The position numbers were made by a program, and so were the translations under genes. Shown piece after piece: positions 1,553-19,114 of a stretch of DNA of 44,221 bases (within the stretch, counting starts at the first letter, position 1; each line of letters opens with the position of its first letter). This DNA is from a virus (Duplodnaviria > Heunggongvirae > Uroviricota > Caudoviricetes): the IMG/VR virus record IMGVR_UViG_2721755643_000005. The stretch is one strand, 5' to 3'. Under the pieces are notes generated by a model, which was not told the origin of the DNA, did not search any database, and saw only the letters and a list, made by a program, of their open reading frames with translations.

Positions 1553-1741
1553 TCACGAGGACTGAAGTTTCTCGCAATTAAAATTTATCAGTTTTACTTT
1601 CTGCTCTCTGGAAACGCCTGCTTCTTTTTCCCCTGAGAGCATTTTTTCGCATTCTGATTTCGTTAGTTTTGTCTTTGAGTATCTTGTCCAGCTGGCAGGA
1701 GAACCACCTTCCTTTTCAATAGTGGCTGTAATTTTATACAT
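1553..1741 (-). CDS. Hypothetical small phage protein
   Basis: 62-aa ORF from ATG at 1741 preceded by GGAGGTG. Confidence 0.4.
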   Translation of the reverse strand: MYKITATIEKEGGSPASWTRYSKTKLTKSECEKMLSGEKEAGVSREQKVKLINFNCEKLQSS

Positions 1742-2894: not shown

Positions 2895-3191
2895 TTAGTC
2901 CTCCAAATCAATATCAACCTGGTGGTGGGCAATGGTTTCAGCCATGTACCGGATGTGTTCTGCCATGCGCTCCTGAAACTCAACATCATCATCAAATGCG
3001 TGGCTGATTGCCTGTTTATTGGCACCGTGGCGTTGCAAATGGTCGATGCAGAGCGATTCAAACAGGTGCTGAGGCAGACCTTTTTCCAGGTCGTCCGCCA
3101 GTTCCGTTTCTTTTTCTTCACGAACGATCTGCTGGTAGTGGCGAGCCCATGCCATTTCTTCAATACGATCAAAAATCGGGTAAGCGCTCAT
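2895..3191 (-). CDS. Hypothetical protein
   Basis: 98-aa ORF from ATG at 3191 with GGAGTGA SD; overlaps the stop of the upstream 646-aa gene, suggesting coupling. Confidence 0.45.
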
Positions 3192-5109
3192 CACTGGTCA
3201 CTCCAAAATTTTCAAGCTTGTTGGCAATCATCATTGCGATGTCAGGGATTGCAGGCGCATAGGCTATGCACGCAGGATTCGCACATAAACCGTAAACCGC
3301 CGCAATCAACACCTGTTTTTTCCAGTTGAGTTCATCTTCGCCAGTTTCATTATTGCTATCATTATGCTGATCGCTGCCAGCGTTCTCCGGTAACAAATCA
3401 TCAGCTTTTTCCGTTTTCTTCGGCTCTTCTTCCTGTGCTTCATCTGGTTTTTTTTCGTCAAAAGTTTCCTGATAAGTTGCGTCTCCCATCACCGCGCCAC
3501 AGTCAGGGCAGTTATCCTCGCCAGTCTGATTGCAGGGTGTTCCCTCCTCCGGTTCGCTGTTCTGGTGCTGTTTATCTTCAGTCTGTCGCACTTCATTTTC
3601 CGTTTTTTTGACTTCATTTGAGGAGATATGATGACCGGGAATCCATTTCGAATCATTCGGGTCGCTAATCCCTTCAACAAATTCTCCGCGAGAGGCAGCC
3701 AGTAATTTGTCTGCATCGACAGGATTTTTGGGCGGAATGTTTTTCCGGGCTTCATGGAGTTCTGTCCGCAGTTTCTGATATTTCGCATCAACAGCATTTA
3801 CCTGTGACTGAGCATCCAGCGGCTGCGTGTCCTGATGATGTTCAGTTGCATCCGGTTCCACTGTTTCAGCCGTTGCCTGTTCATCTGCCATTGCGCAAGA
3901 TGGTTGCGGTTTTTCTTCATCATCCTGTTTTCCTTCTTCTGTTACACGTTGCGGCATCGGGGCAGAGGAGCGACCGCAGGCAATATCCACGATTTCCGGA
4001 TCAGGGTTGGCATGATCGGTTTCAGTCAGTACCTTGTTCAGATATTCAGTGACGTGCGCGGGGATGACCTCGATACCAATCGGCGCTTCTTTCACTGACG
4101 CAACCACGATGGCGCGGGAATAATCCATCCCGCCAGGCATGGTGATGAATTTGTCGCGGAAAACAGAAAAGGGCGGTTTATTTTCAGCGATAATTTCCTC
4201 GACACGTTTAGCGTGTGCCGGATGAAGGTTATAAATATCCACGTCCATTGAACGGGCCAGTACGCCAGTGGCTACGTCGCGCGCCAGCGACGTCAGATCG
4301 TGGACGAAACCTTCGCCGCGATCGGTGAGGTTCCCGCCGCCAGCATTAGCACCGGAAGCCGTGCGAGTGATACGCGAAACACGATTTCCTTTCATCCACT
4401 CTTTTGTCAGCAGACCGCGATCGGTGTAGTTGGCATCCAGATATGCTTCGAAAAAAGCAGTCATCAGTCCCAGATTTGAATTGCCTGGATTAGGGAAAAC
4501 TCTGTCAGTATCACGCACCAGTTTGTGGAGATCGCGAATTTCCAGCGGATCGAGCAGGCTGGTTTTGTGGGAAACAGCCAGGGCAGTAACAGCTGGTAGT
4601 TCTTCATCCCGAGCAATGTGTAATGCCTGGAGTTCATCGCGTGAAACGTGCGTTACCGGTTTTTCGCTGCCGTGTTGCGCAAGCCAACGAATGGGCAGCT
4701 CCTGGCCAGAAATCGGGAGTAGCATATTCTCCTCAATCTCAGTCATGTCTTCGCCGTTGACGTTGGTATTGTCAGTGCTGGCTGGTTTGTCCTGAACAGA
4801 GGGAGAAGATGCGATAAATACCATTGTGATGCCATCTTCCCCGCCTTTTTCGTAACGGTTGCAGAATTCCGTATCAAACACGCCTTCTGGTGGGAGGTCA
4901 TCAACAACGGGCAAATTGACGCGAACAGGTTTTTTAAAGTCATCTTCATCGTAGCCAGCATCGTCAATCGCAACAGCACCACGGGAGATGGCAATGGATA
5001 ATTTTTTCGCTTCAGCCCAGTAAAAACCGCCTTTAATACCGAGGCGTTTTCTTACTTTGTCATTTTTTGCTTCGTAATACAGTGGGTAAACTTGTTTATC
5101 GGTGCTCAT
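3169..5109 (-). CDS. Hypothetical large protein with acidic low-complexity region and C-terminal Cys-rich zinc-ribbon-like motif
   Basis: 646-aa uninterrupted ORF; motif [13 protein letters not shown] and C-terminal CANPAC; long D/E-rich stretch; no family recognised from sequence alone. Confidence 0.6.
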
Positions 5110-5503: not shown

Positions 5504-5791
5504 TTAAAGTTCGTGTGCCATCTTGTCTTTTTCGGCACAAGCTGCACTGCAATATTTTCGTTTCTTTCTGGCAATCATGTTTCCATGCATATAAATAAGC
5601 TCGCCAGTAAAAGCTTTTTCAGGTAAAAACTGTTTATTGCAGAGATGGTAATCACATTGTATTAAATCCAGGTCACCTTTTTGCTGGAGAATTTTTCTGA
5701 TTCTCCACAGCCATTTTTTAATCCCGGTATGACTGATGGTCTGCCTGAGGGCAGGTGTAAAACAATAATCAAGCATGGGGTTCATATCCAT
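5504..5791 (-). CDS. Hypothetical Cys-rich small protein
   Basis: 95-aa ORF with CDYHLC ... CSAAC cysteine pairs; exact start among 5791/5785/5776 uncertain. Confidence 0.4.
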   Translation of the reverse strand: MDMNPMLDYCFTPALRQTISHTGIKKWLWRIRKILQQKGDLDLIQCDYHLCNKQFLPEKAFTGELIYMHGNMIARKKRKYCSAACAEKDKMAHEL

Positions 5792-5801
5792 AGCTCCATT
5801 T

Positions 5802-6650
5802 TTATTTTAAGGAAAGCAACTGCTCTACGGTCATGTTTTTAATTGCGCCCCGGTTTACAAGAGTCCAGCCCTGTTTTTCCAGGTAGAACTGGAAAGTATC
5901 CAGGGTACAGACCAGTGCGCCATCAGGAACAGTTTCGGTGAATCTGATATTGCCGCGTTCGTCGAAGTGAACTACGAGAGTACGGCCATCTCCTGGGATA
6001 ATTTTGTCAGCGGGCAGGGTATTATTCTGGCGCAGTTCGGCCTCCATGCGGTCGAATTCAGCGATGTAGGCCTCTTTGAATGCAGCGGCTTTTTTACCAG
6101 TGAAACCCATCACCAGGAAAACGAAGCCGTTTTTGGTGATTTGGTACATTGGGCGTTTTTCGCCTTTGGCGTCGGTATAGGTGACGGGCTTAAAATTAAG
6201 CCGGTTAAACTCCGGCGAGCATTCGAGAGTTTCGATCTTCTGAATAACGTTTTTGTGCATTTTCCGGAAGAACTCCGCAACCGCAACAGACGTAGTGACA
6301 GCGCGACCATTTTCGATGGTTACGTCAGGGTGAGAAAGGGTAAGGATAGTAGCCATGATGGCAGCCTCGATAGTCAGTTTAAATAACTCACCACCAGAGG
6401 TAGCAATCTCATGGGTGGTGAGACGCACAGGGTTGCTACAACCGGTGACTACCGAAACCGGCCAGCCTTGCGGCTGCCCTGCACGCCCCACCATAATCTG
6501 AATGTGGCTGTGCTTGACGCATAAAAAAACCGCCTGAGCGCGGTTATGCGCAGTAGTCATCGTCGGGGTAGCAATCCCGGCACCCGTTTTATGAGGTGCA
6601 GGTGCACTATAATTCCACCCGTTCTGGTTTTCAATAGCTACATTCAACAT
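5802..6650 (-). CDS. Rha-family phage regulatory protein
   Basis: C-terminal half carries the Rha-type signature (AVAEFFRKMHKNV ... YQITKNGFVFLVMGFTGKKAAAFKEAYIAEFDRMEAEL); N-terminal extent and true start uncertain. Confidence 0.6.
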   Translation of the reverse strand: MLNVAIENQNGWNYSAPAPHKTGAGIATPTMTTAHNRAQAVFLCVKHSHIQIMVGRAGQPQGWPVSVVTGCSNPVRLTTHEIATSGGELFKLTIEAAIMATILTLSHPDVTIENGRAVTTSVAVAEFFRKMHKNVIQKIETLECSPEFNRLNFKPVTYTDAKGEKRPMYQITKNGFVFLVMGFTGKKAAAFKEAYIAEFDRMEAELRQNNTLPADKIIPGDGRTLVVHFDERGNIRFTETVPDGALVCTLDTFQFYLEKQGWTLVNRGAIKNMTVEQLLSLK

Positions 6651-6838
6651 TTTCTCTTACCTTTCATCACCGAAGTGAACTTTGTTGATGCGGTGCCTGG
6701 TGCCTCCAGGTGACGTTAACCAGTTAACAATTAACGCCGGATACAGGGATACCCATAACCACCCGATACGTGGGAACTAATCGCTTTTTAACTGTTCCGC
6801 GTGCGCTGAGCCGCATTCACCGCATCACAAAATTCACT

Positions 6839-6949
6839 TTAAAAAGGGCGGACATCAGCCAGCAATGAAACTGATGCCGCCAAAATCCACTCATAAAGTT
6901 CATCATCGGTATAGTCTGGCGCGATGATGACGGGTTCTCGTTTCTGCAT
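6839..6949 (-). CDS. Small ORF (36 aa), possibly not translated
   Basis: ATG at 6949 with GAGGAA SD; overlaps the DicF-like hairpin, so coding status is doubtful. Confidence 0.25.
   Translation of the reverse strand: MQKREPVIIAPDYTDDELYEWILAASVSLLADVRPF
6841..6900 (-). ncRNA. Candidate DicF-like small RNA with terminator hairpin
   Basis: Minus-strand sequence TTTGGCGGCATCAGTTTCATTGCTGGCTGATGTCCGCCCTTTTT resembles the recalled E. coli DicF core (TTTGGCGGTATCAGTTTTAC...GCCGCCC) and forms a hairpin followed by a T-run; sits downstream of YdfA/YdfB-like ORFs as in Qin. Confidence 0.35.
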
Positions 6950-6977: not shown

Positions 6978-7106
6978 TCAGCCGTTAGATTTTGCCGAAC
7001 TGGAAAGCGCCTGTTTAAACTCACTGAAGCTGAGAGCTTCTTCGCCTTCGGCAAGGCCTTCGAAGTATTCTTCGTAAGCCTTTTTCATGATTGTGTCGAA
7101 ATCCAT
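6978..7106 (-). CDS. Small protein resembling Qin prophage YdfB
   Basis: 42-aa ORF MDFDTIMKKAYEEYFEGL...; AGGTGA SD; starts 1 nt after the upstream stop. Confidence 0.45.
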   Translation of the reverse strand: MDFDTIMKKAYEEYFEGLAEGEEALSFSEFKQALSSSAKSNG

Positions 7107-7107
7107 A

Positions 7108-7263
7108 TTACTCACCTGAGTTTCTTTCCAGCCAGCGACGCGCGCCAGATTCGGTTTTAAACGTTTTGCTTTTGGTATACGTCATCGCGGTGAACGTGCC
7201 GTCCTGGTTGGGAAACACGCCACACACCAGGGATTCGTTGTTGCCAAGATCGATAGTATCCAT
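7108..7263 (-). CDS. Small protein resembling Qin prophage YdfA (DUF1391-like)
   Basis: 51-aa ORF MDTIDLGNNESLVCGVFPNQDGTFTAMTYTKSKTFKTESGARRWLERNSGE; first gene of the leftward operon from the immunity region. Confidence 0.5.
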   Translation of the reverse strand: MDTIDLGNNESLVCGVFPNQDGTFTAMTYTKSKTFKTESGARRWLERNSGE

Positions 7264-7430
7264 GCTGACCTCATTTCCCCTTAACGCCGGGTGGCGGAAC
7301 TAAAACCTGTCGCACCGTTGTGCTTTGATGGAATACATTGTTCTCTTTAAATGAACATATGTCAACATTATGAATTCATAAAAGGCAAAAAAAACCGCCT
7401 TTCGGCGGTATTGTTTTGTAAAATAAAGAA

Positions 7431-7820
7431 TTATTTTTGACGCGTTGCTGGGTCAACGTATTCTGAATAAAATTCAGTCAGTTTTTGAAGTCGCATTTGA
7501 AAAGCTGCAAGCATATTTCTGCGTTCTACAGGTGGCAGATTTCTGTAAACATCAAGCAGGGCTTTCTCATCATCATCAAGTGTCTCTCTATTGCTATCTT
7601 CTTTTCCTGTCAGCAACCAGGAAAGGGATACGTTTGTAGCTTCTGCAATTTTTGCCGCGGAATCTTTACTGATTGTTCCTCTTTTTTTCCATGCGTTAAC
7701 TGACGAGCGACCTACACCAGCGATACGCGCTAAATCTGAACCGCTTAAGTGATGCTGTTGCGAGATCGTATCTAACCTTTCTGCCAGCGGGGTGTCGTAT
7801 TGCTTTTTTCTCATGTCCAT
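7431..7820 (-). CDS. Prophage repressor, DicA/RacR-like HTH (XRE family), no S24 peptidase domain
   Basis: 129-aa ORF with HTH (SDLARIAGVGRSSVNAWKK) and C-terminal region parallel to DicA; divergent from a cro-like gene. Confidence 0.8.
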   Translation of the reverse strand: MDMRKKQYDTPLAERLDTISQQHHLSGSDLARIAGVGRSSVNAWKKRGTISKDSAAKIAEATNVSLSWLLTGKEDSNRETLDDDEKALLDVYRNLPPVERRNMLAAFQMRLQKLTEFYSEYVDPATRQK

Positions 7821-18883: not shown

Positions 18884-18884
18884 A

Positions 18885-18960
18885 CCACCACTAGCTCATC
18901 CGGATAGAGCATCAACCTTCTAAGTTGACGGTGCGAGGTTCGAGTCCTCGGTGGTGGGCC
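18885..18960 (+). tRNA. tRNA-Arg (anticodon TCT)
   Basis: Acceptor CCACCAC/GTGGTGG, anticodon stem TCAAC/GTTGA with loop CTTCTAA, T-arm CGAGGTTCGAGTCCTCG, 3' CCA. Confidence 0.75.
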
Positions 18961-18962
18961 AG

Positions 18963-19039
<77 letters not shown>

Positions 19040-19042
19040 TAT

Positions 19043-19114
<72 letters not shown>

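Follow-up and report, generated by a model that had tools for sequence, protein, structure and literature searches.

A probable decayed dicF locus that keeps its terminator hairpin in an Escherichia coli prophage

The Rac/Qin-type E. coli prophage studied here (the window, i.e. the whole analysed stretch of 44,221 nucleotides) contains on its minus strand, downstream of homologues of ydfA and ydfB, what is left of a dicF locus. The locus is homologous to dicF by synteny, carries an exactly defined deletion, and has lost the 5' arm and the spacer as well as the sequence complementary to ftsZ, while a stable hairpin followed by T5 is still present. We consider it probable (roughly 0.7) that this is a decayed dicF locus of which the terminator hairpin and U-tract survive, and now function as a leaky intrinsic terminator and 3'-end stabiliser. 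Since the parts by which DicF silences ftsZ are missing, the element is decayed and is probably no regulator of cell division.

Genomic context and fold of the element

The features of the region, in the order in which an early-left transcript would meet them, are the following.

7431-7820, minus strand: CI-type repressor gene (Pfam Phage_CI_repr).
7337-7365, minus strand: promoter-like site TTGACA-17-AACAAT upstream of ydfA, called by consensus scan alone.
7108-7263, minus strand: ydfA homologue (DUF1391), first gene of the early-left transcript (Pfam DUF1391, E = 1.5e-29; PGAP).
6978-7106, minus strand: ydfB homologue (PGAP on the identical record L001; alignment with K-12 ydfB).
6839-6949, minus strand: ydfC' remnant, an open reading frame of 36 codons (MQKREPVIIAPDYTDDELYEW followed by ILAASVSLLADVRPF and a stop; ORF list).
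6884-6886, minus strand: deletion junction, where the ydfC part ends in ...GAGTGGA(T) and the hairpin-allele part begins with (T)TTTGGCGG.
6847-6881, minus strand: GC-rich hairpin, the terminator stem-loop of the minority C-type allele of the dicF/kilS locus.
6881-6869, minus strand: 5' arm of the hairpin, GGCGGCAUCAGUU.
6868-6861, minus strand: loop of the hairpin, UCAUUGCU, 8 nt.
6860-6847, minus strand: 3' arm of the hairpin, GGCUGAUG-U-CCGCC.
6845-6841, minus strand: T5 run (U-tract) 3' of the hairpin, predicted point of intrinsic termination (read from the sequence).
6681-6840, minus strand: remnant of the dicF-dicB spacer or dicB leader, STnc100-like (partial match to STnc100 with 34.6 bits, below its gathering score of 47).
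6634-6606, minus strand: promoter-like site for the isrK-C4-antirepressor module (consensus scan).
6523-6599, minus strand: isrK (Rfam).
6411-6498, minus strand: C4 (Rfam).

The CI-type repressor gene, ydfA, ydfB and the hairpin follow each other on one strand, an arrangement as in the dicB operon of Qin. An earlier note on this DNA had described the ydfA/ydfB context as a mirror of that operon, and the two genes indeed lie immediately upstream of the hairpin. The parallel ends at the hairpin, however, because there is no dicB, kilR or ydfD in the window: tblastn searches of the window found none of DicB, KilR, RacC and YdfD, and YdaE alone was matched. The promoter-like site at 7337-7365, located downstream of the CI-type repressor gene, is a candidate equivalent of PL/dicBp, a role that is argued by analogy with dicBp (PMC10448788). 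Between the end of the repressor gene (7431) and this PL-like promoter (7365-7337) lies a perfect bidirectional terminator-like hairpin (7394-7409, both strands; ACCGCC-GAAA-GGCGGT), with T-runs on the minus strand.

The minus strand from 6900 to 6837 reads AACTTTATGAGTGGATTTTGGCGGCATCAGTTTCATTGCTGGCTGATGTCCGCCCTTTTTAAAG. The hairpin within it has 13 bp and one bulge, and the 64-nt stretch has a minimum free energy of -21.6 kcal/mol (z = -3.38), a stability reached by 0 of 200 dinucleotide shuffles. The hairpin and T-run on the minus strand that had been noted earlier are thus present (6841-6895), and the consensus scan also lists 6847-6881 as terminator-like. With a stable GC-rich stem-loop directly before a U-run on the transcribed strand, the element has the predicted features of an intrinsic terminator, and it shares the CCGCCC-TTTTT-AAAG tail with K-12 dicF.

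We propose that early-left transcription would start at the repressor-controlled PL-like promoter and read ydfA, ydfB and the truncated ydfC. The hairpin with T5 would act as a leaky Rho-independent terminator, ending a ydfA-ydfB-'ydfC transcript of approximately 490 nt, and may in addition protect the 3' end of that transcript. The terminator role is suggested by the dicF hairpin of K-12, which likewise ends a transcript: the 1,146-nt ydfABC-dicF transcript stops at the hairpin, and a 1,608-nt species passes through it (PMC10448788). Read-through in the prophage would go on into the dicB-leader remnant and then into the isrK-C4-Rha/antirepressor module, which appears to have its own promoter too. 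As a GC-rich stem with a U-tract in a repressor-controlled operon, the element resembles the generic Rho-independent terminators of lambdoid early-left (PL) operons. These yield a short terminated transcript plus read-through, as does the K-12 dicF hairpin, and the same is expected of the window element. Unlike them, it is derived from an sRNA gene and is located inside a remnant reading frame.

Homology to dicF and the deletion junction

The earlier note had pointed to a resemblance to DicF and had named the Rfam model as a check on it. In a permissive search of 1.1 kb, DicF (RF00039) matches 6846-6895 on the minus strand over its full length (model positions 1-52 of 52) with 43.3 bits (E = 6.9e-8), and 37 of the 46 aligned columns in hairpin and tail are identical to K-12 dicF. 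The resemblance is real and far beyond chance, but it is sub-threshold: the gathering score of DicF is 48 bits, and for that reason the Rfam scan of the whole window at gathering thresholds contains no DicF. On the same model K-12 DicF scores 76.7 bits, a type with covariant GGUGG/CCACC and the ACUCCG loop 61.1, an E-type allele 43.5, the KilS type 39.1, the C-type hairpin in its intact context 38.8 and 34.1, and a C'-type 28.6 (the main types are described below); two further alleles have no match to the DicF model. The window element, fused to ydfC, outscores its own intact parents only because codons 19-22 of ydfC (UAUGAGUGGAU) by chance resemble the 5' arm of DicF.

The origin of the element is settled by its surroundings, since both of its flanks align with K-12 Qin and with phage Tritos. 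On the upstream side ydfA, ydfB and the 5' part of ydfC are collinear in the alignment with Qin and Tritos; on the downstream side the sequence past the T-run (AAAGTGAATTTTGTGATGCGGTGAATGCGGCT...) aligns with the K-12 dicF-dicB spacer. Like DicF of Qin (RF00039, E. coli K-12 b1574), the element follows ydfA-ydfB-ydfC and precedes the dicB leader, with the same strand logic, and this is the position of dicF in a dicBF-type operon. Common to both are the GGCGG...CCGCC base of the 3' terminator hairpin and the CCC-UUUUU-AAAG tail with its U-tract. The differences lie in the loop (UUUCAUUGCUGG in the element versus UUUUACUCCGUGA in K-12 DicF), in the 3' arm (CUGAUGUCC versus CUGCUCUGCC), and in the 5' arm UUUCUGGUGAC and the upstream spacer with RNase III and RNase E sites, both of which DicF has and the element has lost. 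K-12 DicF is also predicted to pair with ftsZ and has dicB downstream, whereas the element has neither property.

Intact relatives contain, in this order, a full-length ydfC (219 nt), a spacer of approximately 340 nt, dicF and dicB. We aligned the junction in the window against K-12, phage Tritos and an O121 strain. According to the exact breakpoint analysis, 495 bp are absent compared to strain A36, which has exactly the same hairpin as the window in undeleted context, and a single nucleotide (T) of microhomology is found at the breakpoint. Codons 21-22 of ydfC (...TATGAGTGGAT) run directly into TTTGGCGG, the foot of the hairpin, the junction being 4 nt before the hairpin itself. At the level of sequence, the deletion takes out the 5' arm, the spacer and the putative RNase III and RNase E maturation sites.

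The contiguous ydfC'::hairpin junction was found in 7 of the 5,426 complete E. coli genomes, two of which have it twice. It is 100% conserved in the seven, with the flanks of these prophages 92-96% identical, and a stretch of 801 bp is 100% identical in three complete genomes. The two genomes with two copies, RMDEC364 (NZ_CM177020.1) and VL46 (NZ_CM177010.1), have the identical junction at two distant chromosomal sites each, which points to two resident prophages that share the deletion allele through recombination or inter-prophage duplication.

Alleles at the dicF/kilS position

Alleles were gathered by means of a conserved 18-mer just downstream of the T-run, which yielded 143 loci from IMG/VR, GTDB genomes and further fetched sequences. 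Outside Escherichia and Shigella this anchor gave mostly chance matches, and the locus is confined to that group. All alleles at the dicF position share the GGCGG/CCGCC base, which in one K-12-type lineage carries a compensatory GGUGG/CCACC change, and the T-run, whereas their loops and upper stems are unrelated. RNAalifold on 19 distinct alleles recovered just the stem base of 5 bp, in which one pair is compensatory. Since homology between alleles does not extend to the upper stems and loops, covariation at the level of the alignment cannot test the full hairpin, and folds per allele were used instead.

The K-12 DicF type hairpin is present in 3,946 of the 5,426 complete E. coli genomes (73%), the B-type (KilS type) in 1,430 (26%), and the C-type, the allele of the window with the same 44 nt, in 91 (1.7%). 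The carriers of the C-type mostly have the hairpin in an intact intergenic context upstream of dicB. In such loci (E. coli A36, P393-F10 and SE11; unannotated) the 44 nt of hairpin and T-run agree 100% with the window, and so does the sequence downstream, but they also have the full-length ydfC, the spacer, an allele-specific 5' arm GUUGAUUACC-UUUU and dicB, all of which the window has lost. This 5' arm before the stem is to be compared with UUUCUGGUGACG in K-12 dicF, and the C-type 3' arm CUGAUGUCCGCC with CUGCUCUGCCGCC. The allele closest to the C-type, C', differs from it in the loop. A literature search gave no description of divergent natural dicF alleles; the paper of Faubladier and Bouché (1994) on dicF-like prophage sequences may hold one.

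The B-type allele is the 3' end of KilS, a 98-nt sRNA of Rac (b4833; K-12 Rac locus L194:1906-2003, minus strand), which has been verified by northern blot and forms chimeras with yncL in Hfq RIL-seq (Bar et al. 2021, PMC8175672). In its stem arms (GGCGGCAUCAG / CUGAUGUCCGCC) and T-run it does not differ from the window element, whereas the arms of DicF do, and it has the same conserved sequence past the T-run and the same syntenic slot in a Rac-like early-left operon. BLAST matches between the window and KilS are limited to nt 50-64 and 79-98, the terminator arms and T-run. The 5' body of KilS (~50 nt, i.e. the first 49) is absent from the window, its loop (UUUUUUUCUUGAAGUUCGG) is unlike that of the window, and KilS is located in the 5' UTR of kilR, a gene that the window does not have. 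With the KilS allele as query, Rfam 15 gave no match but DicF (39 bits); in other genomes no annotation was found under the KilS allele among the matches listed.

The likeness to KilS bears on an alternative explanation, in which the element works as an sRNA with a new specificity and represents a third dicF/kilS species, which would come off the 3' end of the ydfA-ydfB-'ydfC mRNA. Such an sRNA would be made by termination and RNase E cleavage near the junction, and its loop, or the 5' tail derived from ydfC, would direct it to targets that do not include ftsZ. RNase E prefers the motif RN|WUU. The junction GA|UUUU suits this preference, and cleavage there could free a hairpin RNA of approximately 45 nt. 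Since the verified, Hfq-associated KilS has identical arms and T-run at its 3' end, the hairpin module can support a functional sRNA. The hairpin is also very stable, the C-type is kept in 91 genomes, mostly in intact context, and the conservation of the junction across diverged prophages could mean retention and not mere recombinational spread. On the other hand, the deletion has removed the 5' arm that belongs to this allele, together with the whole of the precursor upstream, and the single-stranded part that remains is ydfC coding sequence, translated by ribosomes. There is no sign of constraint on the loop, which is different in C', the closest allele. Moreover, when the 44-kb window was searched for targets complementary to the loop and upper stem, the strongest duplex had -28.1 kcal/mol, compared to a shuffle-best mean of -27.1 +/- 1.6, so that no target within the prophage rises above shuffles. 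On balance we consider a new sRNA unlikely.

A wider version, in which the dicF/kilS slot is a modular sRNA cassette, the C-type is a third functional species and its ydfC-fused derivative in the window is still an active sRNA or an Hfq-binding decoy, seems to us quite unlikely. If it were true, a constant terminator base and leader would be combined with interchangeable 5' arms and loops, each combination making a distinct Hfq-dependent sRNA that acts on host targets of its own.

Loss of the determinants of ftsZ control

The targets of DicF, a discrete Hfq-dependent RNA of approximately 53 nt, are ftsZ, xylR, pykA and manX. The determinants of pairing with the ftsZ ribosome-binding site reside in the 3' region of DicF (loop and 3' arm), and those for xylR, and by prediction pykA, in its 5' end (PMC5069750). 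The decayed locus in the window has neither. Its loop and its 3' arm are those of another allele, in which the ACUCCG anti-Shine-Dalgarno motif, and with it the ftsZ-complementary ACUCCG...CUGCUCUGCC, is absent. The single-stranded 5' arm UUUCUGGUGAC... has given way to ydfC coding sequence, and the intact parent (C-type) allele is also without this K-12 arm. As for the 5' ends of DicF in K-12, RNase III cuts approximately 137 nt upstream and RNase E forms the mature end (PMC10448788). Judging from the alignment, neither maturation step would be available to the window element, the whole spacer being inside the 495-bp deletion.

Duplexes with ftsZ were computed on the initiation region (-40 to +20), since a 160-nt ftsZ segment gave long-range artefacts. 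For K-12 DicF the predicted duplex has an energy of -33.8 kcal/mol, reached by 4.9% of shuffles, with a cofold gain of -11.3. The corresponding values for the window element are -24.9 kcal/mol, reached by 56% of shuffles, and a gain of -2.7, and in the joint minimum free energy structure with ftsZ the element's own hairpin stays closed. Over 32 distinct alleles, those with ACUCCG all have duplexes between -31 and -37, with gains between -9.4 and -14.3, and the single ACUUCG point mutant has -30.9 and -8.4. The remaining alleles range from -15 to -31 with gains of -2.4 to -8.4, and the window is among the weakest. The predicted pairing of the window element with ftsZ is no better than that of a shuffled sequence, and we do not expect the element to repress ftsZ or to regulate xylR or pykA.

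With the 5' arm and processing sites deleted, ACUCCG absent and the pairing equal to that of shuffles, the effect on host cell division through ftsZ that had been suggested for this prophage is not upheld. Of the proposed DicF-like small RNA, the descent from a dicF locus stands (strand, position, hairpin and T-run), but the DicF-like regulation of ftsZ does not. It follows from the same data that a bona fide DicF orthologue, by which the prophage would repress ftsZ translation and inhibit host cell division, is very improbable, despite the full-length covariance-model match (E = 6.9e-8), the correct synteny and a terminator tail as in K-12 dicF. The score is below the gathering score and is inflated by ydfC codons that happen to look like the 5' arm of DicF, and both the anti-Shine-Dalgarno loop and the 3' arm that contact ftsZ in K-12 are missing.

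Loop and 5' arm are found in other combinations elsewhere. Compared to K-12 (L005), the loci L011 and L101 (IMG/VR contigs) have the ftsZ-pairing ACUCCG loop with a different 5' arm (..UGUGUAGUCUUUGG) and not UUUCUGGUGACG, and L029 and L129 have kept the K-12 5' arm next to a shortened hairpin without the ftsZ loop. DicF thus appears modular, and the mixing of loop and 5' arm among these four loci suggests that ftsZ and xylR/pykA targeting may assort independently among prophages.

The ydfC' remnant

The last 15 codons of ydfC' span the hairpin, and its UAA stop (6841-6839) takes the last U of the U-tract. Since the frame runs through the hairpin and the stop overlaps the U-tract, transcripts that terminate here would be non-stop or close to it, in agreement with a pseudogene and not with a functional peptide. 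In the PGAP annotation of the identical locus (record L001), ydfC is a pseudogene ('incomplete; missing C-terminus') and no ncRNA is called, and the open reading frame has no Pfam match. That the product is a chimeric 36-aa YdfC' peptide, for which the hairpin is merely coding sequence, is extremely improbable: although the ATG is intact, the native ydfC ribosome-binding site (GAGGA) is present and the frame is open to 6839, PGAP and Pfam offer no support, the C-terminal 15 residues are an accidental reading of the terminator hairpin, terminated mRNAs would have no complete stop, and the fusion occurs in just 7 of 5,426 genomes.

The downstream module and other features of the window

The dicB leader remnant is kept in the window though dicB is gone, and the homology to K-12 stops just before the ATG at 6650; the K-12 dicF-dicB spacer itself scores 34.4 bits on the STnc100 model. 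The same order of DicF, isrK and C4 is found in locus L011, there with a DicF allele that is predicted to be ftsZ-competent, which indicates that the replacement of dicB by an isrK-C4 module is a recurrent mosaic and not peculiar to the window.

The promoter-like site at 6634-6606, together with a weak c4-a1b1 match (6560-6612), suggests a P1-type immI antisense-controlled antirepressor module. PGAP places a 282-aa 'Rha family phage regulatory protein' at 5802-6650 on the minus strand, starting at 6650 and spanning isrK and C4. In Pfam its residues 14-108, exactly over isrK and C4, match the 'Ash protein family' (PF10554), and residues 119-203 the Rha domain. Either the start of this reading frame is over-extended and the Ash family in part reflects the translation of RNA genes that are conserved, or protein-coding sequence does overlap with RNA genes here.

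The Rfam scan of the whole window at gathering thresholds lists RalA, sok, C4, isrK and four tRNAs. RalA, the antitoxin sRNA of the RalR/RalA type I toxin-antitoxin pair, is full-length (1557-1735, plus strand, 207 bits). Together with a RecE-family open reading frame (3169-5109) and a homologue of YdaE (5504-5791) it makes the left arm of the prophage Rac-like. Further to the right are a sok antitoxin RNA of a hok/sok-type module (15176-15350, plus strand, 113 bits) and a cluster of four tRNA genes (18807-19113, plus strand).

Implications

In complete E. coli genomes at least three hairpin alleles are common at the dicF position, and Rfam at gathering thresholds and PGAP call the K-12 type alone. 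Control of ftsZ in the manner of DicF should not be ascribed to the window prophage; dicB and kilR are absent from it too. A sub-threshold Rfam match to DicF can signal true homology of the locus without DicF function, and to conclude on 'DicF-mediated division control' because a prophage shows synteny or a weak covariance-model match is an over-call.
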